This document shows positions 30,095 to 60,580 of a stretch of 64,000 nucleotides of DNA, one piece after another (position 1 is the first letter of the stretch; each line of letters starts with the position of its first letter). The notes under the pieces were generated by a model. It did not search any database, was not told the origin of the DNA, and saw only the letters and a list, made by a program, of their open reading frames with translations. Source of the DNA: Candidatus Altarchaeum sp. (GTDB lineage Archaea > Altiarchaeota > Altiarchaeia > Altiarchaeales > Altiarchaeaceae); the NCBI GenBank assembly GCA_018260615.1, contig JAGWDQ010000044.1, positions 13,791 through 77,790 of the forward strand, read 5' to 3'. Position numbers and translations under genes: made by a program.

Positions 30095-30318
30095 TTTATC
30101 TTTTTGTTTTTATTTATTTCTGTTAAAATTATTGTTCGGTAACAATATGAGCAATTAAAGCAAAGACATCAGGTAAATTTATCATTGTATTATCTCTTTA
30201 AAATTTCTCTGATTGCTAGAATGTTAAGATGTGACTACGGTTTTATTATTTTTCTCATTGAATCAATATGCTCTGATAAATTTAAATTTTAACATTAAAT
30301 TTTAACACAAATAAAATT

Positions 30319-32298: not shown

Positions 32299-32309
32299 TG
32301 TAATTTTAC

Positions 32310-33479
32310 TTATCTGACATTATCTAAACCTCCCGATAAACCTGAATTTTGACCGCTTTTAATTTCTTCGGCCATAGTTATCCCTTTATCTTCTTTTTCC
32401 GATTCCTTTTCTTTCATTAATGAAAATGCGTAAGCAAGGGCAAAAACCGACAGGATAAAAGGACTAATGAAAATATTTAAAACGATTGTAAAAATTTCCG
32501 CAAAAAGGTATAAAGAAAATGAAGGATGCATCGCATTGGCAAATGAGAACATAAATGAAGGAATGGAAGCAGCCATCATAATAACTATATAAATTACCAG
32601 CAACAGACAGAAATTTGCAGTATTGTCTTTTGTAAAATTTAAGGTCTTTTTTATTGCGTCTGTTACATTTATATTATCATTTAACACAATGACAGACGGA
32701 AGTATGTATGTAATTGCAGAAATTACTATGTATGTAATGAACACCAGAGCAAAAGAAATGACTATAAAAAGAATAAAAAAAAGTATGAGAAAGATAAGTG
32801 ATAAAACAGGACTGATGAATCCGGTGGCGATACCTAAAATCAAAAGAATAATTGCACCAATTATTCCTGTTGTGTAAAATTTTCTGAATTTTTTTGAGAG
32901 GATATAATGACCGAAGGCGAGTAATATAATTGCCTGAGCAATAAACATAATAAATGCAATGAGCATCATACCTGCTGCACTTCCTAAATTCATGGTTGAA
33001 TACGAATCTGTCGAAGCAATGGAACCAATGGCAAAAAGATACAACAACATTCCGATAATTCCGGGAAGGAAAAACAAAATATTTGCCGCCAAAACTGCGA
33101 ATATAGCAACAAAGCCCTTTGTCAGTGCTGTTTTTACCATATCTGAAATTTTTGTGGTCTCTCCGCGCAAATAGTCCTTTACTGCTCTCAGTCCTGCAAC
33201 ATTAGCAAGAACTGCAAGAAAGGATAGAAAAGTTGCCCATACTATTATTAAAAGCATATAGTCCGCAAATTTCTTAAAAAAATAACTGTCATAACCTCCC
33301 GCAGAAGTTGTGTAAAATGCAGTGGATGAGTATGAACTTTGAGATGTAAATTCAAACACTGGTTTTGCAATGAGCAAAAAACTTAAGACCGAAATTATCC
33401 CCAAGACAATAAACGGGACAAATATTGCTTTGTTCTTTTTTAATACATCAAAGCCCTTTCCTAAAGTATAAGATAACAT
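32310..33479 (-). CDS. Polytopic membrane protein of unknown function
   Basis: ~8 predicted TM helices; 389 aa. Confidence 0.4.
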   Translation of the reverse strand: MLSYTLGKGFDVLKKNKAIFVPFIVLGIISVLSFLLIAKPVFEFTSQSSYSSTAFYTTSAGGYDSYFFKKFADYMLLIIVWATFLSFLAVLANVAGLRAVKDYLRGETTKISDMVKTALTKGFVAIFAVLAANILFFLPGIIGMLLYLFAIGSIASTDSYSTMNLGSAAGMMLIAFIMFIAQAIILLAFGHYILSKKFRKFYTTGIIGAIILLILGIATGFISPVLSLIFLILFFILFIVISFALVFITYIVISAITYILPSVIVLNDNINVTDAIKKTLNFTKDNTANFCLLLVIYIVIMMAASIPSFMFSFANAMHPSFSLYLFAEIFTIVLNIFISPFILSVFALAYAFSLMKEKESEKEDKGITMAEEIKSGQNSGLSGGLDNVR

Positions 33480-33660
33480 TTTATTTATTCTAAAATTATG
33501 TTTTCAAAACAAATATAATATGAAAATATAAAAATTTGAAATTTGTTTATTTTGGGCTTTTTAAAGTTATTGATGTGTAAAGGTAAAAATTTATTTATCA
33601 ACCCGTGACAAAATGTCACGACTTCGCTTCCTTATTCTGTCAGCCGTTGTTTCAATTTTC

Positions 33661-35826
<2,166 letters not shown>

Positions 35827-35914
35827 TCAATGGACATCCAAAAATCAGATTATGTCCCGTAATAAATCTGCAAAAATCCCATATTTTGGCAAATTTTTGT
35901 ATTTATTGTTTTGA

Positions 35915-36520
35915 TCAGATATTTTCTAACATATTAGCTTCGGTTAAAGCACTAATTATGTCTTTATTAACCTTCTCTATAGATTTATCTCCTTTAATAT
36001 ATGTCACAACAAGATTATTTTCAGACTGCATGCTTTTTAAAATTTTTAAGTAATTTTCCTTTACGAGCTTTAGTTGTTCAATATTTTCATAAAGTTCTAT
36101 GTGGTCTCTGTTGTGAATAATTCTTTCAATGCATGTCTCGGGTTTGACATCCAAAAAGAGCACCATGTCCGGCTTTCTTGCATACCTGTTTATTTCAATG
36201 AGAAAATTTAAATCAATTGTCTGTGATTGATAGGTAAAATTTGAAATATAATATCTGTCAGAAATCACATAATCATAATGAGCAAATTTTATATTTGCCA
36301 GATGGTCTGTTCTGTCAGCAGCAAATAACAGCGCCAATGTCATCTCATCAAATTTTATCCGTTTTCTTAAGGTATTTCTTATAAGCATTCCAATCAGCCC
36401 ATCCGTTGGTTCTTTTGTCAGTAAGACCTTTTTGCCATTCATGAGCAGATATTCCTTGAGCAGATGGGATTGAGTACTCAATCCGCTTCCGTCAATTCCC
36501 TCAAAAACGATAAATTTCAT
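35915..36520 (-). CDS. tmk: Thymidylate kinase
   Basis: 'FIVFEGIDGSGLSTQ' P-loop, 'DRY' motif; 201 aa. Confidence 0.8.
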   Translation of the reverse strand: MKFIVFEGIDGSGLSTQSHLLKEYLLMNGKKVLLTKEPTDGLIGMLIRNTLRKRIKFDEMTLALLFAADRTDHLANIKFAHYDYVISDRYYISNFTYQSQTIDLNFLIEINRYARKPDMVLFLDVKPETCIERIIHNRDHIELYENIEQLKLVKENYLKILKSMQSENNLVVTYIKGDKSIEKVNKDIISALTEANMLENI

Positions 36521-36547
36521 AAATTATAAATAATAAATTTCAAAATC

Positions 36548-36700
36548 TTATCTTGCTAAAATTGTCTTTGAAATAGGCGGTCTCTTTTTAAACCACAAAT
36601 CCGAGCCCCTTGTTTTACACTTTATACATTTCATCCTGTTTCGCTTTATTTCTTCGTAAGTGTTCTCATTTCCGCATCGCAAACATACATACTCTGACAT
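36548..36700 (-). CDS. Small zinc-ribbon protein, RpoP(Rpo12)-like (50 aa)
   Basis: Translated from minus strand: 'MSEYVCLRCGNENTYEEIKRNRMKCIKCKTRGSDLWFKKRPPISKTILAR' with CxxC...CxxC; not in ORF track (<60 aa). Confidence 0.45.
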   Translation of the reverse strand: MSEYVCLRCGNENTYEEIKRNRMKCIKCKTRGSDLWFKKRPPISKTILAR

Positions 36701-36746
36701 GTTCAATAAAATTAATATCCGAATTTTTAAATTTTTTATTAAATTT

Positions 36747-36983
36747 TTAAATTTTTTTTATAACCTGTGAGGTATAAGCACCGCCTGCAAATTTTACTTT
36801 ACATCCTCCGCACTTCCATATTCCCGCTTCCAGCCGGACAACTTTTTTCTTTCCGCATTTCGGACATTCATGCATTTGCTTGCTGGCATCTTCTATTGCA
36901 TTTACATCTTCTTTTGTTCTTTTTCCTATTCTTGCGCCAAATCTCCCGCATCTTCCGGCCTTCTTTGTGTGACTATAAACCAT
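36747..36983 (-). CDS. rpl37ae: 50S ribosomal protein L37Ae (eL43)
   Basis: 'CPKCGKKKVVRLEAGIWKCGGCKVKFAGGAY' zinc ribbon. Confidence 0.85.
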   Translation of the reverse strand: MVYSHTKKAGRCGRFGARIGKRTKEDVNAIEDASKQMHECPKCGKKKVVRLEAGIWKCGGCKVKFAGGAYTSQVIKKI

Positions 36984-37130
36984 CTTATATTTTGTTAATA
37001 ATTTTGTTAATAAAATTTTCGTAATATATTTGTTTTTTAAATTTAAATTTCAACATAAATTTCAACAACTTAAAAATTTGTTGTCTAATACTAAATTTAT
37101 TATATACAATAAAATAAGCAAAATAATTAA

Positions 37131-37853
37131 ATGGAAAATTTTTCGGTGATTTTGGTTGAGCCGATTTACGGAGGAAACATCGGCTCGGTTGCAAGGGTTA
37201 TGATGAATTTCGGATTCAAAAATTTAGTGATGGTAAATCCGCCCTTAACCGGAATTGATGCAATGAAATTTGCGGTTCATGCAAAGGAAATTGTCCAGAA
37301 TGCAAAAATTTTTAAGTCCTTTGACGAAATGGCGGAAAATTTTGATTTATTAATCGGTACAAGTGCAGAAATTGCAGGGGGTAAAAATTTTATCAGAACG
37401 CCGATTTCTTCTGCCAAAATCGGAAATGTGGTTAATGCTGATGGAAATATAGGACTCGTATTCGGAAGAGAGGACTTCGGATTGTCTGATAAGGAAATAG
37501 AAAAATGCGATATTCTTGTTACAATTCCTACGGATAAAACTTATAAGTCGTTAAATTTATCTCATTCCGTAGCAGTCATTCTTTATGAGCTTGTGAGGGA
37601 AAAAAATTTAAGGGGAGCAAATTTGAAAAAGATGAAGCTAGCAAATAAAACTGAAAGAGATGTTATGCTTGAAAAATTCACGGAATTAGTCAGTGTGTTT
37701 GAGCTGGGGGACTTCAGAACACGACTTATAAGAAAGACATTTAGAATAGTTACCGGAAGGTCATTTGTATCCGGGAGAGAGTGCAACACGCTTACAGGCG
37801 TTTTCAGGCGTGCCCGCGAGCTGATTGAAAAACAAAAAAAGGAAAATATCTGA
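37131..37853 (+). CDS. SpoU/TrmJ-family RNA 2'-O-methyltransferase
   Basis: N-terminal 'VILVEPIYGGNIGSVARVMMNFGF', SPOUT fold motifs 'LVFGREDFGL'; 240 aa. Confidence 0.6.
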   Translation: MENFSVILVEPIYGGNIGSVARVMMNFGFKNLVMVNPPLTGIDAMKFAVHAKEIVQNAKIFKSFDEMAENFDLLIGTSAEIAGGKNFIRTPISSAKIGNVVNADGNIGLVFGREDFGLSDKEIEKCDILVTIPTDKTYKSLNLSHSVAVILYELVREKNLRGANLKKMKLANKTERDVMLEKFTELVSVFELGDFRTRLIRKTFRIVTGRSFVSGRECNTLTGVFRRARELIEKQKKENI

Positions 37854-37879
37854 ATTAGTTATCGGATAAAAGAATGAAT

Positions 37880-38105
37880 ATCGTACCGGAAAGTTCGTTT
37901 TATGAGCCTCACACGGAGACACAGAGACACAAAGGGGTTATATTCTGTAATCCGGTGACTTTGTGGCTTTTAAAAATTTCACAAATTTTTAAAGATTGAA
38001 AATCTTACAGATTTTCAGTATTTTCAAAACCCAAAGGTTTTGAAAATCTCCGAGCAACAGCGAGGTGAACAGCGAGGTTATTGTGTGAAGATTATTCTGA
38101 TTTTT
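37880..38105. repeat. Composite intergenic repeat element (long-hairpin 'GAGCCTCACACGGAGACACAGAGACACAAAGG...GTGACTTTGTGGC' module + TTTTGAAAATC modules)
   Basis: Matches 54717-54830 and (inverted) 60400-60528; ends 'attattctgatttttt' like 54815-54830. Confidence 0.7.
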
Positions 38106-38201
38106 TAATTGATTTGTCTGAATTACTTATTTATTTATAATCCTAATATCTAAAACAAAATATAAATATACAAAGCATTAACATAATAAATATAAGTAAG
38201 G

Positions 38202-44470: not shown

Positions 44471-44583
44471 AAACAAAAGATATATATAATTAAGTTTTAA
44501 AATAAATTAATAAAAGAATAACAAAGCGAAACCACTCTAAATTAAAAATTAATTAAAAATTTTAATTAAAATTATAAAAAAAT

Positions 44584-45168
44584 ATGTTCCTCACCCATTC
44601 CCTTATAAAGCCAGACACCGTTGAACTGCGAAAGTATCAGGAAGCGATAATCGCAACATCGGCAAATAAAAATACAATAGTTGTACTTCCGACGGGACTT
44701 GGAAAAACGCTGATTGCCGTAATTGTTGCCGCACATCGGCTGGATAAATTTAATGGCTCAAAGGTTCTGTTTTTAGCACCTACCAAGCCGCTTGCAGTAC
44801 AGCATGCAGAGACATTCAGACAAATTTTAAATTTAAAGGACGATGAAATTTGTGTATTCACATCGGCAACACCGACAAATAAGCGAAACGACTTATGGGA
44901 GAAATCACGGGTTATTCTGGCAACGCCTCAAACGATAGACAACGAAATAATGAAAAATTTAGATTTGAGCAATGTTTCTTTTCTGGTTTTTGATGAAGCA
45001 CACAGAGCAGTCGGAAATTATGCTTACGGGTTCATTGCAGGCGAATATATGAAAAAAGCAAAGCATCCGCTGATTATGGGATTGAGTGCTTCTCCGTCAT
45101 CTGATATTGAGAAAATTTCGGAAATTTCAAAAAATTTGTTCATACAGTCGGTTGAAATAAGCACTTAA
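44584..45168 (+). pseudogene. Truncated duplicate of the N-terminal ~190 codons of hef (47477-49765)
   Basis: DNA nearly identical to 47477-48053 from start codon onward (identical antisense ORFs 44637-44861 and 47530-47754); diverges at 45160 and terminates. Confidence 0.85.
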
Positions 45169-47242: not shown

Positions 47243-47476
47243 AATGAAAAATAATGTTTTGTTTATATTTTCTTTTTGTGCCTATTTTCCTGATTTTTGT
47301 ATGAGATTGGGTAAGATGATTTTTTAAATTTTTATACCTTCTCAAATAATATTTTTCACTGAAAAGTAAAGCCAAATAAGTCAATTTACCATGTTTTATT
47401 GAGTGGATATGAATTTTTTAAACAAAAAACTAATTCTTAAAATATTTTAACATACTGTTGTTCATTACTTATTATT

Positions 47477-49765
47477 ATGTTCCTCACACACCCCCTCATA
47501 AAGCCGGACACCGTTGAACTGCGAAAGTATCAGGAAGCGATAATCGCAACATCGGCAAATAAAAATACAATAGTTGTACTTCCGACGGGACTTGGAAAAA
47601 CGCTGATTGCCGTAATTGTTGCCGCACATCGGCTGGATAAATTTAATGGCTCAAAGGTTCTGTTTTTAGCACCTACCAAGCCGCTTGCAGTACAGCATGC
47701 AGAGACATTCAGACAAATTTTAAATTTAAAGGACGATGAAATTTGTGTATTCACATCGGCAACACCGACAAATAAGCGAAACGACTTATGGGAGAAATCA
47801 CGGGTTATTCTGGCAACGCCTCAAACGATAGACAACGAAATAATGAAAAATTTAGATTTGAGCAATGTTTCTTTTCTGGTTTTTGATGAAGCACACAGAG
47901 CAGTCGGAAATTATGCTTACGGGTTCATTGCAGGCGAATATATGAAAAAAGCAAAGCATCCGCTGATTATGGGATTGAGTGCTTCTCCGTCATCTGATAT
48001 TGAGAAAATTTCGGAAATTTCAAAAAATCTGTTCATACAGTCGGTTGAGATAAGGACCGAAAATGACAGCGATGTCCGGGAGTATATAATGAAAGTGGAG
48101 GAAGAATGGGTAAAGGTTGAACTGCCTGCGGACTTTAAAGGAATAAGGGATAAACTTGCGGACTTGCTTAAATTTTACCTGAAACAGTTAAAGGATATGA
48201 ATTACATTGATACGATTAATTTGACAAATATTAACAAAAAGGACTTATTGGCTGTTCAGGAAAGAATAAGGGGCGACATATTGAGCGGAAACGGAAATTT
48301 CGATGCGGCATCGCTTATTGCAAAAATTATAAAACTTCATTATGCTCTTGAACTTATAGAGACGCAGGGAATTTTTACTTTATACAGGTATCTTGAACGG
48401 CTGAATCTGCAAAAAGGTAAAGGAGTAAAAGAGATGTTTTCCGATGAGCGTATGAAGGAAATCTGTGAAAATGTTAAAATTTTGTATGATGCAAAAACAG
48501 ACCATCCGAAGTTAGATGCAATCTTAAAAATTTTAAAGGAAGAGTTGGGTAGTTCGGAAGACAGAAAAAACAGGAAAATTTTGCTGTTCACTCAATACCG
48601 GGACACTGCCGAAAAAATTTATGAAATTTTAACGAACAACAACATAAAATGCGAGAAATTTATAGGTCAGGCAAGGAGAGATAATGACAAAGGAATGACG
48701 CAAAAAGAGCAAATTGCATCACTTGAGAAATTCAAAAATAATACATTTAATGTGCTGATTGCAACTTCTGTCGCAGAAGAAGGCCTGGATATTCCCAAGG
48801 TTGATATTGTAATATTTTATGAGCCGATTCCAAGCAGTATAAGAGCAATACAAAGGAGGGGAAGAACGGGAAGAATGTATGAAGGAAAGGTGATAATTTT
48901 GATGACAAGGGGGACGAGGGACGAAGGATATTACTGGAGTGCGGTTTCAAAGGAAAGAAAGATGAAGGAATATCTGACAAAATTCCAGATTTCAGGAAAA
49001 GAAGGCATTGAAAAAGAAGTACAAAAAAGACATGGGCAGCAAAGTATTTTATTGTACGACGATAATAATAAAGAGGATAACAAAGATAATGAAGAAAACA
49101 ATAACAAAGATAAAAACGAAAGACCTAAAATTTATGCCGATATACGGGAGCGAAACACGGAAATTTTTAAAATTTTAAATGAAAAGGCAGATGTCATAGT
49201 CAGGCAGTTAGAGGTTGGGGACTATATATTGAGCGAAAATGTATGTGTTGAGAGAAAGACAGCCGGTGATTTCTTACAGTCAATTGTTGATAGACGACTA
49301 CTTGAACAGGCACAAAATTTAGTGAGAAATTTTGAAATTCCGATAATTATCATAGAAGGTGAATTAAATTTGTCTTCAAGAAATATTCATCCGAATGCAG
49401 TCCGGGGAATGCTCGCCGCAATAGCAACTGACTTTAAAATTTCCATCATTCCGACAAAAGACGAAAATGATACCGCCGAAATGCTGTTCATAATCGCAAA
49501 AAGAGAGCAGGAAGAAAAAAGAAATCCGGTTGCTTTAATCGGTGAAAAGAGGGCTTACACTCTTGCCGAGAGACAGCACTTAATTGCCGAATCACTTCCA
49601 AATGTGTCTGCTGTGATTGCCGAACGGCTGCTTGAACGTTTTAAGACGATAAAAAAAATTGCAAATGCTGGCATTAAGGAATTAATAAAAGTTGAAGGAA
49701 TCGGATTAAAAAAGGCAGATGAAATTTTTAAGGTTACACATTCGGAGTATAAAAAGGAGAAATAA
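47477..49765 (+). CDS. hef: Hef-like helicase-nuclease (SF2 helicase + ERCC4/XPF nuclease + HhH2)
   Basis: 'VVLPTGLGKTLIA', 'LVFDEAHRA', helicase C 'ATSVAEEGLDIP', ERCC4 'ENVCVERKTAGDFLQS', C-terminal HhH; D/N/K/E-rich insert ~aa 525-555. Confidence 0.85.
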   Translation: MFLTHPLIKPDTVELRKYQEAIIATSANKNTIVVLPTGLGKTLIAVIVAAHRLDKFNGSKVLFLAPTKPLAVQHAETFRQILNLKDDEICVFTSATPTNKRNDLWEKSRVILATPQTIDNEIMKNLDLSNVSFLVFDEAHRAVGNYAYGFIAGEYMKKAKHPLIMGLSASPSSDIEKISEISKNLFIQSVEIRTENDSDVREYIMKVEEEWVKVELPADFKGIRDKLADLLKFYLKQLKDMNYIDTINLTNINKKDLLAVQERIRGDILSGNGNFDAASLIAKIIKLHYALELIETQGIFTLYRYLERLNLQKGKGVKEMFSDERMKEICENVKILYDAKTDHPKLDAILKILKEELGSSEDRKNRKILLFTQYRDTAEKIYEILTNNNIKCEKFIGQARRDNDKGMTQKEQIASLEKFKNNTFNVLIATSVAEEGLDIPKVDIVIFYEPIPSSIRAIQRRGRTGRMYEGKVIILMTRGTRDEGYYWSAVSKERKMKEYLTKFQISGKEGIEKEVQKRHGQQSILLYDDNNKEDNKDNEENNNKDKNERPKIYADIRERNTEIFKILNEKADVIVRQLEVGDYILSENVCVERKTAGDFLQSIVDRRLLEQAQNLVRNFEIPIIIIEGELNLSSRNIHPNAVRGMLAAIATDFKISIIPTKDENDTAEMLFIIAKREQEEKRNPVALIGEKRAYTLAERQHLIAESLPNVSAVIAERLLERFKTIKKIANAGIKELIKVEGIGLKKADEIFKVTHSEYKKEK

Positions 49766-49782
49766 ACAAAATGTTCACACAA

Positions 49783-49925
49783 TCACCTCACTTACGCTCA
49801 CTTCGTTCGTGTATTTTCAAATCTCTGTGATTTGAAAATCGTTCGGAGATTTTCAAAATCTGTTGATTTTGAAAAAGACACAAAGGAGTAATTCTCTGTG
49901 GCTTATTGGCTTGGTGTGAGGGAGT
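49783..49925. repeat. Intergenic repeat element (TTTTGAAAATC modules + partial long-hairpin module 'GACACAAAGG...GGCTTGGTGTGAGGG')
   Basis: 'cctcacttacgctcacttcgttcgtgt' as in 44241-44270; 'gattttcaaaatctgttgattttgaaaa' palindrome. Confidence 0.7.
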
Positions 49926-49954
49926 AATAAAAAAGGATAAATAAAAATAAGAAG

Positions 49955-51238: not shown

Positions 51239-53842
51239 ATGAGCGAAACAGAAGAAGTAACAAATAAGGACAAAAGGTATTTATTTAGCTGGAAGGACAT
51301 TCCGGGAAAAGACAGCGAGAAATTTCTGAAATTTTTGGAGAATGACCTGAAAATATTGTGGGCAAAGACAGCGGAAATCAAAAAAAGCGATGATGGTAAA
51401 ATCATATCTGTTACTGACAAATTAAATAATAAAAATTTAATTGAATTTAAATTTACTGAAAAAGAAGGCAAAGTAACACTTAAAATTTCAGGAGGAAAGA
51501 CCTGCAAATACCTTTTAAAAGAAGAAGGAGGCAAGACAAAGATATATAAATTGGGAAAAGATATTAAAGAATATCTGGACGATCTGGAAAAGATAATTAC
51601 AGGTGATAATAAAAGTAAAGAAGGCAAAAAAGCAGATGAGACCGAAGAAAAGAAAGAGGGTAAGTATTTGTTTAACTGGGATGATGTTCCGGGAGATAAT
51701 ACAGAATTCATAAAATTTTTAAAAGACGGACTAAAAATAGAGTGGGTGGAGAATGCTAAAATCGAAAAAAGTAAGAATAAGGAAACAATAACTGTTACGA
51801 ATAAAAACAAAAATTCAGAGTCAATTACTATCAAACTTAATAAAACAGAAAAGAAGGTAAGTTTAGAATACAATGGTGAAACACACGAATACATTTTAAA
51901 AGAAGAGAATGGCAGGTTAAACATATACGAATACACAATAAAAGCAAACATAGTAGAAAAGATTGAAGATATAAATCCGGAGATTTTTGAGAAGTATGTA
52001 ACAACAGCAGAAATTCCAATACCAAAAAAAACAATTGACCAGGTTATCGGGCAGGATAAGGCCGTTGAGATAATAAAAAATGCTGCTATCCAGAGAAGAC
52101 ACATAATGCTTATCGGTGATCCGGGAACCGGAAAATCAATGCTTGCCAAAGCAATGGCGGAATTACTTCCCGTTGAAGAATTAATGGATGTTCTTTCCGG
52201 CAGAAATTTTGAAGATGAAAATAATCCGAAAATAAAGGTTGTTAAGACGGGTGAAGGAAAAGAAATTGTTAAAAAATCTTCCGAAGGCACACAGGCATCC
52301 TCTTCAGGAGAAAGCAAAACATTCCTTTATATTGCTGTTTTCTTTATTATTCCTCTGGCAATTTATTTTTATGCGATAACTCATTATATTCAGATTGATT
52401 CAACTATTATTTTTGCACCGATGCTCGTCGGAATGTTTTTACTGCTGTTTCAGGGAATGAATTTCAGGCAAATGATGGGCGTACCAACCCACGGAAATGT
52501 GCCAAAGATAATTGTTGACAACTCAAACAAAAAACAGGTGCCTTTTTTTGACGCAACTGGTTCGCATGCAGGTGCATTGCTTGGTGATGTCAAGCACGAT
52601 CCATTGCAATCAGGGGGCTTGGGGACGCCTCCGCATTTAAGGGTTATGGCAGGAATGATACATAAGTCCCATAAAGGGGTACTTTACATTGATGAAATTT
52701 CAACATTAGGAAAGTCGCAGATGGATTTACTTACCGCCATGCAGGAAAAACAACTTTCAATAACAGGGAGAAGTGAAATGAGCAGCGGTGCAATGGTGAT
52801 GAGTGATCCTGTTCCGTGTGATTTTATATTAGTTGCCGCAGGAAATTTAGTGGATATGGAGCACATGCATCCTGCATTAAGGTCCAGAATAAGGGGCTAC
52901 GGTTATGAAATTTATTTGGATAATACAATGCCTGATACAACAGACAACAGAAGAAAATTAGTCAGATTTGTTACTCAGGAGGTAATAAAAGACGGAAAAA
53001 TTCCTCATTTTACAAAAGAAGCGGTTGATGTAATAATCAGAGAAGCGGAAAGAAGAGCGGGAATGAAAGGAAAATTAACATTGATTTTCAGGGAACTTGG
53101 AGGACTGATAAGAGCATCCGGGGACCTGGCGGTAAAAAGAAAACATAAATTTGTAGATGCAAATGATGTAATGGATGCAAAAAAAATAGCGAGAACACTT
53201 GAAGGGCAAATCGGTGATATTTACTTAGATAAGCGTAAAGAATACGAAGTAATTCTGACGGAAGGTGTTAGTGTCGGCAGGGTAAACGGATTAGCTGTTT
53301 TCGGTGATGTCGGAACGGTTTTACCGATTGTTGCCGAGGTTTCACCGGCGTCAAGTGAAGGAAGAGGACAAATAATAGCAACGGGAAAGCTGGGAGAAAT
53401 CGCGAAGGAGGCAATAACAAATGTATCTGCAATTATTAAAAATTTTATGGGAAAGGAAATTTCAAACTACGATATTCATGTACAATTCCTGCAAACTTAC
53501 GAAGGTGTTGAAGGTGATTCCGCATCCATTGCCGTAGCAATAGCAATGATATCCGCACTTGAAGATGTCGGAATATCCCAGGAGGTTGCAATAACCGGCT
53601 CGCTTACGGTGAGAGGAGAAGTTCTGCCTGTCGGAGGAGTAACACAAAAGATTGAGGCGGCAATAGAAGCGGGACTTAAAAAAGCCATAATTCCAAAGAG
53701 CAATGAGAAGGATGTGCTGTTAGAAAAACGATACGAGGGAAAAATTGAAATTATTCCTGTCACAACAATTATTGAGGCAATTAAGTACGCATTTAAGGAC
53801 AGCAGTAAGATAACGGAGAAAATGAATAAAATGGTAAAGTAA
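51239..53842 (+). CDS. lonB: Archaeal membrane-bound Lon protease (LonB) with ~260-aa N-terminal extension made of repeated 'FSWxDxPG' domains
   Basis: Walker A '[13 protein letters not shown]', membrane hairpin inserted in AAA module, Ser-Lys dyad '[16 protein letters not shown]' / '[14 protein letters not shown]'; N-terminal '[28 protein letters not shown]...' and '[33 protein letters not shown]'. Confidence 0.85.
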
Positions 53843-54059
53843 AATTTGAAATTTAACTGACTCTTATTTTTAACATCCTAGTGTTAGTAAAATTTTTAAA
53901 TAAAATTTCAAAATTTATCCTTGCTTTAAAATATGTTGCGGGATTTTAAATGTAGGTACAAGTAATCACAGATTAAAGAATAAGGGCCATTGTCTTTACA
54001 TCATAAAGTATAAAATATCATAGTTTTTGTGTTTTATAAAGCAATATCTGCTCGTTCTG

Positions 54060-54160
54060 AATTTTTTAAAAATTTACAGTGGCAAAGTCAGTTATTTCAA
54101 AATTTTTAATATTTTATAATCAGTTGTCCTTATAGCCGGAATCCTACCTGCCCCCTTTAT
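54060..54160. other. ~100-bp diverged duplicate of the 3' end + downstream of radical SAM gene 54856-55992
   Basis: '...taatcagttgtccttatagccggaatcctacctgccccctttattaa' vs 54884-54935 '...taatcagttgttcttatagccggaatcctgcctgctccttttattaa'. Confidence 0.65.
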
Positions 54161-54336
54161 TAATGCCTATTTTTATATCCAAACATAATTAACAATAGAG
54201 TTGTTGCTTTTTAAGAGATTTGAGGGTAAATTTTAGTAAAAATTGAAGGTAAAAATTTTATTAAGCAGCATGTCTAATATCTGAAATTTAATTATTTATT
54301 TAATATCTGAAATTTAATTAATAAATAAAATTTAAA

Positions 54337-54651
54337 ATGGAATACGAGGTAAAAAGATTTGGGGTTGTGTCTGTGTTGAAGATTGGGATTGCGATGGGGG
54401 TTGTAATAGGAGTATTTTGTGGATTGTTCTATGGTTTGTTTATGGGTTTGATTTTTAGCAGCATTCCTGCAAGCATGGGCGGAAGCTCCTCTATGGCAGG
54501 TTTGGGACTTGTAGGAGGAATGGTTTTGGGAATTGTCGGAGGTGCGATATACGGGGTATTTATAGGAATATTTTATGCCATAGGTGCCATCATATATAAC
54601 TTCGCCGCAGGAAAAATCGGAGGAATTAAAGTTGAAATAAAAGAACAATAG
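54337..54651 (+). CDS. Small glycine-zipper membrane protein
   Basis: Repeated GxxxG motifs ('GVVIGVFCGLFYGLFMGLIF', 'GLGLVGGMVLGIVGGAIYGVFIGIFYAIGA'); 104 aa. Confidence 0.45.
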   Translation: MEYEVKRFGVVSVLKIGIAMGVVIGVFCGLFYGLFMGLIFSSIPASMGGSSSMAGLGLVGGMVLGIVGGAIYGVFIGIFYAIGAIIYNFAAGKIGGIKVEIKEQ

Positions 54652-54716
54652 ATGAAATTTAATTCAGAAACGACAGAAAATCATAAATAAATATTTTTCT
54701 CTTTTTTAAATTTTTT

Positions 54717-54830
54717 ATCGTACAGGAAAGTTCGTTTTATTTTTGGTCCCTCACACCAAGACACAGAGACACAAAGGGCAATGTTGCTCTGTGACTTTGT
54801 GGCTTTGTGTGAGTATTCTTCTGATTTTTT
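54717..54830. repeat. Long-hairpin intergenic repeat ('CGTACAGGAAAGTTCGTTTTAT...CCTCACACCAAGACACAGAGACACAAAGG...CTCTGTGACTTTGTGGCTTTGTGTGAG...TTCTGATTTTTTT')
   Basis: Reverse complement of 60400-60528 (inverted partner 5.6 kb away); direct copy at 37880-37975. Confidence 0.8.
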
Positions 54831-54855
54831 TAAAAATTCGTCGTGGCAAACTCTT

Positions 54856-55992
54856 TTATTCCAAAATTTTTACTATTTTGTAATCAGTTGTTCTTATAGC
54901 CGGAATCCTGCCTGCTCCTTTTATTAAATTTTTCAGTTCCTCAACATTCGCACTTCTTTCCGAAATTTTTCCCGCTGCGTAAGTTATATTTTCCTTTTCA
55001 ATGGTTCCGTCAAAATCATTTGCCCCGTAATGAAGTGCTACCTGTGCCAAATTTTTCCCGAGCATAACCCAATATGATCTTATATTGTCAAAATTATCAA
55101 GCAATATTCGTGATACTGCAATAACCTTTAAATCATCTATCCCGCTTACAGGCATCGTTACAAGTCCTTTGTTATATAAATTTGTGCCTTTCGGATGAAA
55201 ACTTAAAGGAATAAAACCCAGAAATCCGTTTGTCTTTTCCTGCAAATCCCTGAGCTTTAATATATGCATGACTCTGTCCTCATTGCTTTCAATATGTCCG
55301 TAAAGCATTGTCGCATTGCTCCTTATTCCTAATTTGTGTGCGGTTTCCATGACATTGAGCCATTCATCGCTTTTCAGTTTATTCGGACAAATTTTACTTC
55401 TTATTTCATCGTTTAAAATTTCTGCCCCTCCGCCGGGTATAAAATTTAATCCCGCATCTTTAAAACGTTCCAAAATTTCTTTAATGCTGCTTTTATTCCT
55501 CTTTGCTATGAAAAAAATTTCTGTTGCCGTAAATGCTTTAATTGCCAAATCCGGAAAATTTTTCCTTATCTCTTTCAGTATGTTCTCGTAATATTCAACA
55601 GGAATTTCCGGGTTTAAACTTCCGACGATATGAACCTCGCTTATATTGCTTATTTGCCGTGCCTTTTTGACCATCTCTAAAATTTTATCAATACTTATAA
55701 CATAGCCATCTTTGTCTTCCTGAGATTTGTAATACGCACAGAGTTCGCATTTGCTTACGCAGATATTTGTATAATTTATGTGTAAATTTAAAACGAATGA
55801 GACAATATCTCCGACCTTGTTTTTTCTTATTTTATCTGCTGCTGTGCCTAAATTTAAGATGTCGTTTGAATTCATTAAGGCAATTCCGTCTTTTTCGGAA
55901 ATTTTGTCTCCTTTTACTGCTCGTTCAAGGATTTCGGAAATTTCGGAGTTAAATTTTTCGTTGGTAAATTTCATTTTGATTTCTTTATTCAA
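54856..55992 (-). CDS. Radical SAM enzyme of the CofH/CofG/MqnC/MqnE family
   Basis: 'NYTNICVSKCELCAYY' CxxxCxxC cluster motif, 'GGGAEIL', 'MLYGHIE'; 378 aa. Confidence 0.75.
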   Translation of the reverse strand: MNKEIKMKFTNEKFNSEISEILERAVKGDKISEKDGIALMNSNDILNLGTAADKIRKNKVGDIVSFVLNLHINYTNICVSKCELCAYYKSQEDKDGYVISIDKILEMVKKARQISNISEVHIVGSLNPEIPVEYYENILKEIRKNFPDLAIKAFTATEIFFIAKRNKSSIKEILERFKDAGLNFIPGGGAEILNDEIRSKICPNKLKSDEWLNVMETAHKLGIRSNATMLYGHIESNEDRVMHILKLRDLQEKTNGFLGFIPLSFHPKGTNLYNKGLVTMPVSGIDDLKVIAVSRILLDNFDNIRSYWVMLGKNLAQVALHYGANDFDGTIEKENITYAAGKISERSANVEELKNLIKGAGRIPAIRTTDYKIVKILE

Positions 55993-56073
55993 TCTATGTT
56001 TAATAATTGTAATTGATTAATGATTTCTAATTTTATTAATTAAATTTTGTGAGAAAGATAAAGAAGCACAAGA

Positions 56074-56316
56074 ATGGCTAAAAATAATTTAATGCAATTT
56101 AAGAAATGTAATTGTCCTCAAGAGTATTGGGAAGAAATTGTAGTTGACCATGACGAAAATTTTGATGACAGGTCTGTAATATATTTCCATTGTGATTTTT
56201 GTGGCGAGGATCATGCAATAGTTGATTTTTATACGGGAGAAATACTTTATCCAAAACAAAATGAGGAAAACAAATCCAAAGTTTCAACACTTAAAAAATC
56301 AGCACTTAAAAAATGA
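56074..56316 (+). CDS. Small Cys-containing (zinc-ribbon-like) protein
   Basis: 'CNCPQEY...HCDFCGEDH' ; 80 aa. Confidence 0.3.
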   Translation: MAKNNLMQFKKCNCPQEYWEEIVVDHDENFDDRSVIYFHCDFCGEDHAIVDFYTGEILYPKQNEENKSKVSTLKKSALKK

Positions 56317-56468
56317 TAAATGATAAATCAACTGAGGATTTAATAAACCAATGCATTAACGGTTATAAATTTTCCTTTGAAGAAGCAAGGGACTTGCTAA
56401 ATTTTGACCTAAACACACTTGGCTTGATTGCAGATGAACTAAAAAATAATAAAGAAATAATCCGATAA
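56304..56468 (+). pseudogene. Truncated copy (first ~50 codons) of the radical SAM gene at 58230
   Basis: Encodes 'MINDKSTEDLINQCINGYKFSFEEARDLLNFDLNTLGLIADELKNNKEII*' vs gene 'MMDTKKSVEEIINQCINGHKFSFEEAKDLLNFDLNTLGLIADEIRNKF...'. Confidence 0.8.
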
Positions 56469-56620
56469 CATTTGTTAAGGTTAAGGTTATAATTATTATA
56501 AGGACATAATTATCAATCATAAAATTAAAAACCAAAATGATGGGCAGGGGACGGATATAAACCACATGAAATAAGTGGATAAAAGTAAAGGACTAAAAGA
56601 AACATGTAAAAAACCAAAGT

Positions 56621-56716
56621 ATGAAAAAAACAGCATTTATGGCACATAGTTTTGAGGGTGGTGAAGTTGTGAAGAATGTTGTAAATAGAGGTATTAATAA
56701 TTACGATGGATATTGA
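56621..56716 (+). pseudogene. Truncated copy of the start of the TIR-domain gene (cf. 56993)
   Basis: 'MKKTAFMAHSFEGGEVVKNVVNRGINNYDGY*' vs 'MKKTAFIAHSFEDDESVKKIVNGF...'; preceded by same ~150-bp spacer as 56860-56992. Confidence 0.75.
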
Positions 56717-56860
56717 AAAATCAATTGATGAATTAATAAATAAATGTATTAACGGTTATAAATTTTCCTTTGAAGAAGCAAAGGACTTACTAAATTTTGA
56801 CTTAAACACGCTTGGCTTAATTGCAGATGAACTAATGAATAATAAAGAAATAATATGATA
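56706..56860 (+). pseudogene. Second truncated copy (first ~50 codons) of the radical SAM gene at 58230
   Basis: 'MDIEKSIDELINKCINGYKFSFEEAKDLLNFDLNTLGLIADELMNNKEII*'. Confidence 0.8.
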
Positions 56861-56992
56861 ATTTATTAATTGTAATGTTGTAATTATTAATCATAAAATT
56901 AAAAACCAAAATGGCGGGCAGGGGACGGATATAAACCACATGAAATACGTGGATAAAAGCAAAGGACTAAAAGACATGTAAAAAACCAAAGT

Positions 56993-58138
56993 ATGAAAAA
57001 AACAGCATTTATAGCACACAGTTTTGAAGATGATGAATCTGTGAAAAAAATTGTAAATGGATTTAAAGATATTTTTAGTTGTTATTTTGACATCGTTACT
57101 GGTGAAGAACCAAGTTCGAATAAATCTATTTCCAAGAAGGTTGAAGGTATGATAAAAGAGCAGGATGTGTTTATAGGTATTGTAACAAAAAGAAAAGACA
57201 GCGAATGGAGCACATCAGCATGGGTTCTAAACGAAGCAGTAACAGCAATGAATTTTAGCAAGCCAATTATCCTTTTGGTTGAAAAAGGTATAAATGAAAA
57301 AAATATGGGGATGGTAGGTAATGCAAGAGAATATATTTATTTTGATAGTAATGATATTTTTGAATATATTCCAAAAGTTATTAAAATTATTGAAGAGATA
57401 AATAAGCCATCTCCGGAAAATAATCTTCGTTTTCCTTACAAATTCAGAGAAGTAATAAACAGGATTACAATATACTCCGAAGGTAGGGGAATTTATGATA
57501 GAAGATGTATGCTGGAAGTACTTTCTGAAGATTTTACCAGGGTCGTTCATGCGATAGGACTAAGTGGTTGTACGCCAAAAACTACTGTTTTAAAACCTTT
57601 TAAAGATATCAAAACTACAAAAATCTCCGACAGATATGTGAAAGATCAATCTTTGTTTTGGAAGATATTTGAACCTAGGGACCTTGTTTTAAATCCCAAA
57701 AGGGTTTTATACGGGGGTGAATGGAAATCTTTGGATATTCCTGATGCAGAGGGATTTAATTTTTCTCTTAATTTCGGAAAATTTCCAATCGGAAGTACAA
57801 TAGAATATTCATACGGATTCTCCTGTAAAGACATGTTTCCCCTGAACAAATATCAACTTAAGAATGGACAGCTTTATATGGGGAAGACAAATAAACTTTC
57901 GGACTGGACGGAAGTAATAAGTGAAGTTGATAAGCTTGTGTTTGTCATTCAATTTGACCATGATTATAAACTAAAAGGATCGCCTGAGCTAATAATAACA
58001 ACACAAGATGGAGATAAAATAAAACACAGTTATAAATTTGAAAAGGAAACATCACTTTTTTACGAGACATACAAGGTAAGCATAGGAAGAACAACTCCTG
58101 GATTCAAATATGTTGTTGAATGGAAACCTGAAAATTGA
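56993..58138 (+). CDS. TIR-domain protein with ~250-aa C-terminal domain of unknown function
   Basis: N-terminal 'MKKTAFIAHSFEDDESV' (TIR betaA 'FISHS..D'), 'STSAWVLNEAV' matching TIR 'SxWCxxEL' catalytic-Glu motif; C-terminal beta-rich domain without recognisable motifs; 381 aa. Confidence 0.6.
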   Translation: MKKTAFIAHSFEDDESVKKIVNGFKDIFSCYFDIVTGEEPSSNKSISKKVEGMIKEQDVFIGIVTKRKDSEWSTSAWVLNEAVTAMNFSKPIILLVEKGINEKNMGMVGNAREYIYFDSNDIFEYIPKVIKIIEEINKPSPENNLRFPYKFREVINRITIYSEGRGIYDRRCMLEVLSEDFTRVVHAIGLSGCTPKTTVLKPFKDIKTTKISDRYVKDQSLFWKIFEPRDLVLNPKRVLYGGEWKSLDIPDAEGFNFSLNFGKFPIGSTIEYSYGFSCKDMFPLNKYQLKNGQLYMGKTNKLSDWTEVISEVDKLVFVIQFDHDYKLKGSPELIITTQDGDKIKHSYKFEKETSLFYETYKVSIGRTTPGFKYVVEWKPEN

Positions 58139-58229
58139 TATTCAAACATATTTTTTAGTGTTTTGATGACATAGTAAATACTATTTTTAAAAGATATATT
58201 AATAAAAGTAGATAAATGTAGGGATAATT

Positions 58230-59327
58230 ATGATGGATACTAAAAAATCAGTTGAAGAGATAATAAATCAATGCATTAACGGCCATAAATTTTCCTTTGA
58301 AGAAGCAAAGGACTTGCTAAATTTTGACTTAAACACGCTTGGCTTAATTGCAGATGAAATAAGGAATAAATTTTGTGGCAATACCGTAACCTTTGTCTGC
58401 GACACAACTATAAACTACACAAATATTTGTTCAGGCAAATGTAAATTTTGTGCATTTTACCGAAACAAATCCGCAGGCGACGCTTATGTATTAACCATTG
58501 ACGAAATTCTGCAAAAAACTGAAAAAGCAGGAAATTTGGGAGCGACACAGGTTTTGCTTCAGGGCGGATTAAATAAAGATATTTCATTAAGTTATTACGA
58601 AACCATTATTAAAGCAGTTAAACAAAAATTTCCCGATGTTCAGAGACACTTTTTTTCTGCTGCTGAAATTTACTTTATCGCAAAAAACAACAATTTATCT
58701 GTTGATGAGGTGCTGGAAAGATTCAAAGAGTGCGGATTGCAGAGTTTCGGAGGCGGAGGTGCTGAAATTTTAGTTACTCAAATAAGGAAAGAAATTTCGC
58801 CGGATAAAATTTCCGCCGAAGAATGGAAAGATGTTATTATGAAGGCACATAAAACCGGAATTAAAACATCTGCAACTATGGTTTATGGATTTGGCGAAAG
58901 TAAAGAAGACCGTCTAAGGCATTTGTTATTTTTAAGGGACATTCAGTATGAAACGAATGGATTTACTGCATTTATTCCGTGGAGTTTTCAGCCCGAAAAT
59001 ACTGCTTTGGGGCAAAATAAATTTTATAAATTTCCGGCTGGGGGAATTGATTACCTTGAAATAATTGCATTGGCGAGGATAATATTCAATAAATTTTTAA
59101 GGAACATTCAGGCATCCTGGCTGACAGAAGGCGAAAAGCTCGCACAGATTGCTTTATTTTACGGAGCAAATGATTTCAGCGGAACGATAATAGAAGAAAA
59201 TGTCGTAAAAGAGGCGGGAATAAAATTTAGCGGAAAGACAAAAGAAGAAATGATAAATTTAATTCAGCAAGTTGGAAGAATTCCCGCACAAAGAGATACA
59301 TTTTACAATGTTCTGAAAGTGTTTTGA
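58230..59327 (+). CDS. Radical SAM enzyme of the CofH/CofG/MqnC/MqnE family (paralog of 54856-55992)
   Basis: 'NYTNICSGKCKFCAFY', 'GGGGAEIL', 'MVYGFGES'; 365 aa. Confidence 0.75.
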   Translation: MMDTKKSVEEIINQCINGHKFSFEEAKDLLNFDLNTLGLIADEIRNKFCGNTVTFVCDTTINYTNICSGKCKFCAFYRNKSAGDAYVLTIDEILQKTEKAGNLGATQVLLQGGLNKDISLSYYETIIKAVKQKFPDVQRHFFSAAEIYFIAKNNNLSVDEVLERFKECGLQSFGGGGAEILVTQIRKEISPDKISAEEWKDVIMKAHKTGIKTSATMVYGFGESKEDRLRHLLFLRDIQYETNGFTAFIPWSFQPENTALGQNKFYKFPAGGIDYLEIIALARIIFNKFLRNIQASWLTEGEKLAQIALFYGANDFSGTIIEENVVKEAGIKFSGKTKEEMINLIQQVGRIPAQRDTFYNVLKVF

Positions 59328-59393
59328 AATTTTATTTAAAATTTTACAATCCTAATTAATTCATAATTAATCAGACAATAAATTTAAAATAAA

Positions 59394-60338
59394 ATGGAAC
59401 TTCCGTGGACAGAAAAATACAGGCCGAAATTTTTAAAGGATGTAGTAGGACAGGAAAAAATCACCGAAAGAATGACTGCGTATGTTAAAGACAAAAATTT
59501 ACCGCATTTACTTTTTGCAGGTCCTGCAGGAACAGGAAAGACAACAACCGCATTATGTTTAGCAAGAGAATTCTTCGGGGAAAATTTCAGAGAGGGATTT
59601 CTGGAATTAAACGCAAGCGATGAGCGAGGAATAGACGTCGTCAGAGGAAAAATAAAGGAATTTGCAAGAACAATGCCAATAATTATGGACTTCAAACTCA
59701 TATTTCTCGACGAAGCAGACGCCCTGACCAACGATGCCCAGCAGGCCCTCCGAAGAACAATGGAACAATACACAAAAACATGCAGATTCATACTCTCATG
59801 CAATTATTCTTCAAAACTCATAGATCCGATTCAAAGCAGATGCGCTGTTTTCAGATTCCGTAAAATCCAGCGGACAGCAATCAACGAACATCTCAAAAAA
59901 ATTTTAAATACAGAACAGGTGAAATTTACCGATGACGGAATTAATGCAATTACCGAAATAAGTGAAGGCGATGTACGAAAATCAATAAACATTCTCCAGT
60001 CGGCGTCTGTGTGCGGAGAAGTCAACGAAGAAAATGTATTTAATATCGCATCTTATGCAAAGCCAGATATTATAAGAAATATTTTAAAATTAGCAATTGA
60101 CGGGAAATTTTTGGATGCACGAAATATGCTTGACAATATTATGCTTAATTACGGGATTGCCGGAGAGGATGTGCTAATTCAGATGAACAGGGAAATTTTT
60201 TATGTTGAAGGAATAGATGATAAAATGAAGATGAAGGTTGTTGATGCCATCGGAGAATGTAATTTCCGGCTGGTTGAAGGGGCAAATGAAAGAATACAGG
60301 TTGCAGCATTGCTCGCAAAAATTGCTGTCCTGAAGTAG
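59394..60338 (+). CDS. rfcS: Replication factor C small subunit
   Basis: 'LLFAGPAGTGKTTTALCLAREFFGENFREGFLELNASDERGIDVVR', 'IFLDEADALT', 'SRC' motif 'IQSRCAVFRF'. Confidence 0.9.
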   Translation: MELPWTEKYRPKFLKDVVGQEKITERMTAYVKDKNLPHLLFAGPAGTGKTTTALCLAREFFGENFREGFLELNASDERGIDVVRGKIKEFARTMPIIMDFKLIFLDEADALTNDAQQALRRTMEQYTKTCRFILSCNYSSKLIDPIQSRCAVFRFRKIQRTAINEHLKKILNTEQVKFTDDGINAITEISEGDVRKSINILQSASVCGEVNEENVFNIASYAKPDIIRNILKLAIDGKFLDARNMLDNIMLNYGIAGEDVLIQMNREIFYVEGIDDKMKMKVVDAIGECNFRLVEGANERIQVAALLAKIAVLK

Positions 60339-60580
60339 AAATCCGCCTTTTTCTTTTAGGAAAAGAAATACGCTCACTTCGCTCGTGTCTTTTCAAAACC
60401 TCTGCGGTTTTGAAAAAATCAGAAGAATACTCACACAAAGCCACAAAGTCACAAGGTTACAGAATATAACTCCTTTGTGTCTCTGTGTCTCCGTGTGAGG
60501 CTCATAAAACGAACTTTCCCGTACGATGAAAAAAGCACGGGGGAAAAAGAAAAAAGTAAACCGTTGAAAAATTTTTGCTT
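60338..60580. repeat. Nested repeats: hairpin mini-element ('CCTTTTTCTTTTAGGAAAAGAAA' ... 'GAAAAAGAAAAAAGTAAACCGTTGAAAAATTT') interrupted by inverted copy of the long-hairpin element (60370-60528)
   Basis: 60545-60578 matches 2188-2223 nearly exactly; 60400-60528 is reverse complement of 54717-54830. Confidence 0.75.

Follow-up and report, generated by a model that had tools for sequence, protein, structure and literature searches.

Inverted copies of a hairpin repeat around the mqnE–rfcS segment of an Altiarchaeales genome belong to a dispersed intergenic family

Introduction

Candidatus Altiarchaeum hamiconexum has the highest density of MITEs (miniature inverted-repeat transposable elements) among archaea, 146 per Mb, according to a census that used a detector based on terminal inverted repeats and that describes no individual family (PMC11602168, Nucleic Acids Res. 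2024). Here, we analyzed a window of 64,000 nucleotides from Candidatus Altarchaeum sp. (contig JAGWDQ010000044.1 of assembly GCA_018260615.1), in which two copies of a ~120-nt hairpin repeat, named LH by us, face each other across a 5.6-kb segment with the genes mqnE, mqnC and rfcS. LH comes from the same genus-level lineage as the Ca. A. hamiconexum MITEs and is, like them, small, non-coding, intergenic and multi-copy; since it has no terminal inverted repeats, on which the detector was based, it may be outside the counts of that census. The many repeats in the spacers analyzed here fit the high MITE density given there.

LH also resembles the repetitive extragenic palindromes (REPs) and bacterial interspersed mosaic elements (BIMEs), palindromes tagged with GTAG or CGTC and mobilized by RAYT transposases, which are likewise extragenic and imperfect, occur in many copies and both orientations, form mosaics of modules and lack terminal inverted repeats (PMC3733652). 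In contrast to REPs of 20–40 bp, the LH hairpin spans ~70 nt in a ~120-nt unit, and it lacks a GTAG or CGTC tag as such: LH starts with ATCGTAC, and its 5′ module has CGTAC. A RAYT gene was not seen in the loci examined, which represent part of the genome. LH works like a MITE or a REP, i.e., as a non-autonomous intergenic palindromic repeat, and fails the REP definition on its size and the missing tag.

The families MJRE1-3 of Methanocaldococcus jannaschii, attributed to Suyama et al. in 2005, are reportedly intergenic palindromic repeats of an AT-rich archaeal genome, and very small hairpin modules of Nostoc, attributed to Elhai et al. in 2008, reportedly insert within each other and within larger repeats. 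The self-nesting mosaic of mini-hairpins that we find within LH resembles these small dispersed repeats and BIMEs. We know of no described link between the MJRE or Nostoc repeats and a nuclease gene cassette.

The LH arms resemble those of cassettes with a GxxExxY (PDDEXK_3) nuclease gene. Like the 23S rRNA intervening sequences that carry an S23p open reading frame (ORF), e.g., in Coxiella (PMC4990558), these cassettes hold a short gene in a loop closed by a long inverted repeat and behave as selfish insertions. In LH the loop is gene-less, and a 5′ module and a 3′ tail are added. PDDEXK_3 has been described as a family of unknown function with multiple transfers between Bacteria and Archaea, in an account that does not mention flanking arms (PMC3424549), and our literature search on the motifs and on GxxExxY/PDDEXK_3 did not turn up any account of the arms. 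That this lineage is rich in repeats is already known; the LH family itself, together with its flanking T runs, its nested forms and its GxxExxY link, was not found described in the literature searched.

Results

LH is a dispersed, intergenic family with copies in both orientations

The window is part of an 89-kb JGI metagenome contig (3300029890 Ga0246099_100138). Its proteins have identical matches in the NCBI metagenome-assembled genome (MAG) GCA_002841105.1, and a protein of a neighboring contig carries the NCBI name ‘Candidatus Altiarchaeales archaeon HGW-Altiarchaeales-1’. The JGI contig (L202) and the corresponding NCBI MAG contig (L203) differ by indels only, which are unrelated to LH or to the mini-hairpins described below. 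In total, ~120 kb of host-genome sequence was covered. An nhmmer profile, built from the three copies that a preliminary description of the window had named, located four copies of LH in the window; with at least six more recovered from other sequence of the same organism, there are at least ten:

54717–54836, plus strand: LH copy A, full length (E = 2.6e-35), hairpin at 54750–54813
60406–60527, minus strand: LH copy B, full length (E = 4.6e-42), hairpin at 60430–60499
37880–38106, plus strand: LH copy C (‘LH-S’; E = 1e-31 for 37880–37970)
49876–49934, plus strand: fourth LH copy, 5′-truncated (E = 6.5e-5, match 49876–49920)
L202 717–838, minus strand: LH copy upstream of the window on the same 89-kb contig
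L205 4427–4594: LH copy from the sister sample (JGI contig)
L206 491–387 and ~2195–2480: LH copies on an ENA contig, the latter heavily nested
L212 6109–6210 and 10673–10813: LH copies beside a GxxExxY gene

Along the 89-kb contig the copies are oriented (−), (+), (+), (+) and (−), and both orientations are found elsewhere, too. All copies recovered are intergenic, several of them shortly 3′ of stop codons: copy A lies between an ORF of 104 amino acids and the 3′ end of mqnE, copy B between rfcS and TrkH, and copy C starts 27 nt 3′ of the SpoU methylase gene. LH is a multi-copy, intergenic, bidirectional dispersed family.

Profile matches and repeat finding in the window confirmed the positions of the two arms around the 5.6-kb segment. 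They are not the near-perfect reverse complements that they had been taken for: an alignment of copies A and B with 128 columns and three indels, located in the 5′ module and the loop, gives 81.2% identity, and the longest perfect run in it measures 41 nt (from 54790). Copy C is nearer to copy B (95% over 91 nt). As described previously, it is direct with respect to copy A and inverted with respect to copy B, but its end had been missed: a spliced alignment and a three-way alignment with a sibling copy showed that the LH 5′ part (37880–37970) is followed by a nested mini-hairpin array of ~105 nt (37971–38075) and the LH 3′ end (38076–38106). The truncated copy at 49876–49934, directly preceded by two mini-hairpin units (49778–49875), had been overlooked altogether. 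The copies recovered are, as far as the assemblies allow, what the preliminary description had named as grounds for giving up inversion, namely members of a dispersed family with mixed orientations.

LH folds into a long hairpin and sits at T runs

An alignment of seven copies revealed the anatomy of LH. A run of six Ts (T6) lies immediately 5′ of five of the six full copies (P about 4e-10 against an AT-rich background), and the element itself consists of a 5′ module A[T/A]CGTACNGGAAAGTTCGTTTTAT, a 5′ arm CCTCACAC-GGAG-ACACAGAG-ACACAAAG-G, a loop of 15–20 nt, a 3′ arm C-YTGTGAC-TTTGTGGC-TTTGTGTGAG and a tail that reads TATTCTTCTGA or CA, with a second T6 run at the end. In copy A, the hairpin stands between the 5′ module ATCGTACAGGAAAGTTCGTTTTAT and the 3′ tail TATTCTTCTGATTTTTT. 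The ends (ATCGTACNGGAAAG... and ...TATTCTTCTGAT) are complementary only at ATC/GAT, so that LH has no terminal inverted repeats. A T6 run stands on both sides of five of the six full copies, e.g., GATTTTTT on either side of the copy upstream of the window and TTTTTTC on either side of copy B. LH inserts in or beside T/A runs.

Every copy folds into a long imperfect hairpin with 23 consensus pairs, spanning ~70 nt within the ~120-nt unit, which bears out the palindrome previously noticed in each copy. Folding z-scores range from −2.7 to −3.8 with RNA and from −3.1 to −3.6 with DNA parameters. The strand that reads ATCGTAC folds better than its complement (−40.3 versus −32.6 kcal/mol for RNA and −17.6 versus −13.6 kcal/mol for DNA) because several of the mismatches are G-U or G-T pairs on that strand. 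Compensatory changes are absent from all 23 pairs in the seven copies, which are too similar for covariation to be informative.

No Rfam family matched the window or 13 further loci at gathering thresholds, nor the 60.3–60.6 kb region at E≤1. A 20-mer of the LH 5′ module (GTACNGGAAAGTTCGTTTTAT) has zero matches among all GTDB species representatives. The 30 viral-contig matches to GGAAAGTTCGTTTTAT include nothing LH-like and were discarded as chance matches.

Close relatives lack LH and share the gene order of the window

The nearest species representatives at rfcS are Altarchaeum GA_1_1 (locus L004, 95% at the amino acid level) and CG2_30_32_3053 (locus L005, 93%). We compared positions 49–64 kb of the window with both by blastn and alignments, and found colinear genes at 80–89% nucleotide identity. 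In GA_1_1, LH is absent from all three orthologous sites, two of which are LH-free in CG2_30_32_3053 as well. At the site of copy A, the GA_1_1 spacer has no LH, and CG2_30_32_3053 matches the window only from 54854. At the site of copy B, the spacer of CG2_30_32_3053 is 18 nt long, and GA_1_1 has the uninterrupted A/T run CCGCCTTTTTCTTTTATGAAAAGAAAAAGCACGGGGG. At the 49876 site, an 86-nt spacer in GA_1_1 contains neither LH nor mini-hairpins. Moreover, no LH or mini-hairpin signature was detected in 44 related rfcS loci (L004–L047), 41 of them from Altiarchaeota or other archaea. These empty sites suggest that the LH insertions are recent and lineage-specific.

The order LonB - mqnE(−) - mqnC(+) - rfcS - TrkH in GA_1_1 is that of the window, including the orientation, and CG2_30_32_3053 agrees with the window from mqnE to TrkH. 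Because these LH-free relatives share gene order and orientation, the present orientation of the segment is the ancestral one. Between rfcS and TrkH, the GA_1_1 contig (L004 ~11070–11330) contains a duplicate of a 5′ fragment of TrkH as well as a stretch of N; this spacer is also unstable or poorly assembled there.

Independent assemblies show one orientation of the segment

The preliminary description had proposed that the inverted repeats mediate inversion of the segment. We find no support for this: two assemblies and the LH-free relatives show one orientation, and no recombinase gene lies in the segment or beside it. In the independent ENA assembly ERZ27239246, contig k141_74856 reads LonB - 104-amino-acid ORF - LH - mqnE and contig k141_78881 reads TIR-like - mqnC - rfcS - mini-hairpin/LH - TrkH, both of which are parental junctions. 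These contigs end at a tandem duplication at 56.2–57.0 kb, not at LH. Domain scans detected no recombinase, integrase or invertase domain in the segment or in its neighbors LonB and TrkH. The segment is very unlikely to be a programmed invertible element.

A hybrid junction was observed at copy C. ENA contig k141_69453 (L208) tracks the window from 30033 to 38056 and then switches, inside this copy, to a region with a GxxExxY gene. In JGI 3300029891, JGI Ga0246099_100296 (3300029890) and NCBI GCA_002841105.1, the same GxxExxY gene is followed by a nested LH and an amidohydrolase gene. A three-way alignment of the hybrid element (L208 7848–8145) with window positions 37880–38106 and L212 10440–10835 showed that it combines the 5′ part of the SpoU-side copy, including two single-nucleotide polymorphisms, with the GxxExxY-side copy's nested array, 3′ end and flank, and that the crossover falls within ~30 nt identical in both parents. 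A reciprocal junction did not turn up, and in the ENA and Logan assemblies the S13 contigs end in the repeat. Either two LH copies have truly rearranged (LH × LH) in a co-occurring strain, or the assembly is chimeric here; exchange between LH copies is at least conceivable.

Mini-hairpins are nested in and around LH

LH shares its spacers with a family of mini-hairpins, TTTTCAAAAC-loop-GTTTTGAAAA, usually with CTCACTTCGTTCG units before. About seven sites of the window contain such hairpins, and the counts of the two motifs, 19 and 9, compare with 3.4 and 0.6 expected. One unit adjoins copy B:

60367–60417, plus strand: mini-hairpin unit, TACGCTCACTTCGCTCG + TGTCTTTTCAAAACC-TCTGC-GGTTTTGAAAA

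Copy B had been described as nested inside a mini-element; it does adjoin one, although on one side only. Together, the mini unit and copy B form a single 162-nt insert (60367–60528) relative to the uninterrupted sequence of GA_1_1. In the copies at 37880, L205, L206 and L212, the nested mini units occupy one and the same position in the 3′ arm, following GTGGCTTT, and one L206 copy has mini units in its loop, too; the nested insertions in arm and loop measure 48 to 150 nt. Conversely, the copy upstream of the window lies inside a mini-hairpin, with GATTTTTT on either side. Two nested LH copies at different loci have the same internal array except for two extra units, and nested elements are therefore copied as units. 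LH is a mosaic, and its nested versions have themselves been copied. A fixed composite of LH(+) followed by mini(−) was ruled out, as the 49876 copy is (+) with mini(+) units before it.

Two duplicated gene fragments were observed in the window. A LonB 5′ fragment is duplicated in inverted orientation at ~81% identity (24777–25261 versus 51505–51929), and a 5′ fragment of a Hef-type helicase gene, called as an ORF of 194 amino acids, is duplicated in direct orientation at 91% (44537–44836 versus 47430–47729). Both fragments are kilobases away from the intact genes and each adjoins a mini-hairpin cluster; duplication of gene fragments beside mini-hairpins looks like a pattern.

LH arms resemble the octamer arms of GxxExxY cassettes

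A scan of metagenomes with an LH arm 19-mer retrieved at least 120 contigs with a GC content of 0.34–0.69, mostly from soil. Among the matches listed, 59 of the 103 that could be evaluated have an inverted partner within 150 nt, which is far from chance, and the arms consist of the same tandem octamers as those of LH, often starting with TCAC or AACCAC. Neither the LH 5′ module nor further Altiarchaeales copies of LH were present among these matches, no Rfam family was assigned to the octamer hairpins in the loci scanned, and no recurrent gene family was apparent beside the solo hairpins in the at least 120 metagenome loci listed. Based on crude ORF picks among the matches listed, the neighbors of solo hairpins show a mild excess of convergent (25) over divergent (14) arrangements.

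Octamer arms were also found around GxxExxY genes, in all five loci inspected, from the archaeon and from unrelated bacteria; L220 and L222 are two bacterial genomes picked for minimal ORFs:

L208 8164–8610: GxxExxY gene of the host
L070 3052–3411: bracketed GxxExxY gene
L100 405–761: bracketed GxxExxY gene
L220 1501–1887: bracketed GxxExxY gene
L222 1501–1884: bracketed GxxExxY gene

The host gene matches TIGR04256 (149.6 bits), and inverted octamer arms overlap its start and stop. Such overlap with start and stop codons is frequent (example of a cassette arm: TCACCGCAGAG-RCGCAGAG), and in 32 of the 120 closest GxxExxY homologues the ends of the ORF read through the arms, giving peptides such as an N-terminal TAETQRTQR and a C-terminal SAPSASLR. 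The LH arms CTCACAC-GGAG-ACACAGAG-ACACAAAG and their complement, with octamers of the CACRRAG type, fit the cassette type of two to four tandem octamers [ACG]C[AG]C[AG][AG]AG starting with TCAC. The arms of the host cassette (CACCGCAGAGGCGCAGAG) are related to the LH arms but different, and the L070 cassette arms contain a 19-mer identical to the LH arm.

No GxxExxY gene was detected in the window by tblastn, and the 15–20-nt loop of LH is without a gene. LH corresponds to a gene-less ‘solo’ form, as do the 59 of 103 evaluable metagenome matches listed. Shared architecture and partial sequence identity, rather than a phylogeny, suggest that the LH hairpin may be a gene-less derivative of the GxxExxY cassette. 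The two would then stand to each other as a MITE does to an IS element. At L100 1–1500, we observed a tandem array of at least ten gene-less octamer hairpins with a period of ~123 nt, in which one position is occupied by the GxxExxY gene.

Content of the bracketed segment

The segment between the two LH copies and the lineage-specific inserts in and next to it comprise the following features:

53873–54853, plus strand: lineage-specific insert between LonB and mqnE, absent in GA_1_1, where LonB adjoins mqnE
54837–60405: bracketed segment between LH copies A and B
54856–55974, minus strand: mqnE (NCBIfam MqnE, 439.9 bits, cut-off 434.55)
56074–57074: duplicated fragments
56450–58260, plus strand: lineage-specific insert between mqnE and mqnC with the TIR-like ORF, absent in GA_1_1 and CG2_30_32_3053
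56993–58138, plus strand: TIR-like ORF of 381 amino acids, weak N-terminal TIR-like matches (E 2e-4 to 4e-4)
58230–59327, plus strand: mqnC (NCBIfam MqnC, 451.5 bits, cut-off 428.1)
59394–60338, plus strand: rfcS (Pfam)

The segment had been read as radical SAM - TIR - radical SAM - rfcS. Its radical SAM genes are mqnE(−) and mqnC(+), and rfcS is present; the TIR assignment is backed by a weak match only. The insert at 53873–54853 holds a duplicate of the mqnE 3′ end (54055–54163), the membrane ORF of 104 amino acids (54337–54651) and LH copy A. The promoter and the first ~140 nt of mqnC are present in triplicate (56288–56449, 56681–56842 and 58208–58369; 77–88% identical), and the three copies flank the TIR-like ORF in a block of 1.8 kb altogether.

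The mqnE duplicate is a direct one, with 86% identity between 54055–54163 and 54819–54927, i.e., 760 nt apart, comprising the mqnE 3′ end and the downstream spacer; it seems to begin within the final bases of an LH tail (TTCTGAATTTTTT). The upstream LonB ORF (51239–53842, 867 amino acids) shows a long gap between the Walker-type N-terminal AAA matches (~265–320) and later AAA matches (~470–520), which may be the usual membrane insert or an intein. The G+C content across the window is 29–39%, mostly 30–35%, and the window contains no tRNA genes. The cumulative GC skew has its minimum at ~36000–38000, and here gene orientation changes: gyrB, thymidylate kinase and L37ae are on the minus strand, SpoU and the ribosomal protein operon on the plus strand. 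An Orc1/Cdc6 gene was not seen near this position.

Discussion

Our analysis indicates that the inverted repeats around the mqnE–rfcS segment are probably independent insertions of a dispersed, non-coding hairpin repeat of the HGW-Altiarchaeales-1 lineage, and that the facing pair is a coincidence, because random orientation makes every second pair of neighboring copies an inverted one. LH would have multiplied recently, in the lineage of the uncultivated groundwater archaeon HGW-Altiarchaeales-1, as a non-autonomous mobile element, with a trans-acting factor moving or copying it, and the GxxExxY nuclease would be the obvious candidate for the mobilizing or maintaining enzyme. Once in place, the copies may be passive homology patches, and rare homologous recombination could take place through the 41-nt perfect run. 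LH has the features of a classical MITE in being small, non-coding, multi-copy and present or absent between relatives. Several observations weigh against parts of this explanation. LH has no terminal inverted repeats and so fails the classical MITE definition, and we found neither a transposase nor another mobilizing gene in the ~120 kb covered. The T6 runs may belong to LH itself instead of being target duplications. The LH loop is too short for remnants of a gene, and the likeness between LH and cassette arms could be due to convergence of a low-complexity motif. In addition, statistics on copy density and orientation are weak, as they come from only ~10 copies, three of which were found via LH itself, and since assemblies show majority arrangements only, a minority inverted form may conceivably exist.

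Such a minority form would be expected if homologous recombination at the LH pair kept the 5.6-kb segment in both orientations in the population. The arms would permit this with their 81% identity and 41-nt perfect run, and as both are intergenic, no gene would be broken by the inversion; the hybrid LH of one assembly, if real, would even demonstrate that LH copies do recombine. Nonetheless, we judge a mixed population to be quite improbable, as two independent assemblies are parental across both arms and break at the tandem duplication, the repeat-free relatives have the same orientation, and the hybrid lacks a detected reciprocal junction while three other assemblies show the parental join. 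A programmed inverton, in which a site-specific recombinase would recognize LH, has nothing in its favor except the geometry of inverted repeats around a block of genes. Since neither the segment nor its neighbors encode a recombinase, integrase or invertase domain, LH is a dispersed family and not a unique pair, and the cargo consists of housekeeping genes (mqnE, mqnC and rfcS), it is hardly credible.

Alternatively, LH could be a functional RNA or DNA signal under selection, such as a terminator, a stabilizer in the 3′ untranslated region, a small RNA gene or a protein-binding site. T runs serve as a termination signal in archaea, and they flank the LH copies, all of which are intergenic and several of which lie just 3′ of stop codons; the better folding of the ATCGTAC strand (by both parameter sets) is a further point in its favor. 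We nevertheless regard a selected function as unlikely: the orientation relative to the upstream gene varies, with copy B and the copy upstream of the window being antisense; the orthologous spacers of close relatives manage without LH; no pair among the 23 shows a compensatory change and no Rfam family matches; and insertions of 48 to 150 nt are tolerated in arm and loop.

Beyond the independent insertions that we favor for the two arms, the cassettes allow a more far-reaching and rather speculative proposal. The solo hairpins, LH included, might be non-autonomous derivatives of a so far undescribed cross-domain selfish element, whose autonomous form would be a GxxExxY (PD-(D/E)XK) nuclease gene in the loop of an octamer hairpin, with the nuclease copying or homing the unit via the hairpin or cruciform. 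In HGW-Altiarchaeales-1, such an element would have given rise to a T-tract-targeting, self-nesting family with occasional rearrangements such as LH-S × LH-P.

As first framed, the observation is ordinary, and it warns against inferring regulation from the geometry of repeats where a genome is rich in them. Altiarchaeales are abundant carbon fixers of the subsurface whose genomes fragment in assembly, and nested arrays of LH and mini-hairpins of up to a few hundred bases in many spacers help to explain contig breaks and possible chimeras. If the hybrid junction is real, the order of the genome in co-occurring strains is shaped by LH repeats. Of wider interest are this possible LH-mediated rearrangement and the connection between GxxExxY and octamer hairpins: GxxExxY is a huge, horizontally mobile family of unknown function, gene-less octamer arms are scattered across bacteria and archaea, and the bracketing of GxxExxY genes by such arms provides a testable hypothesis for the role of this family.

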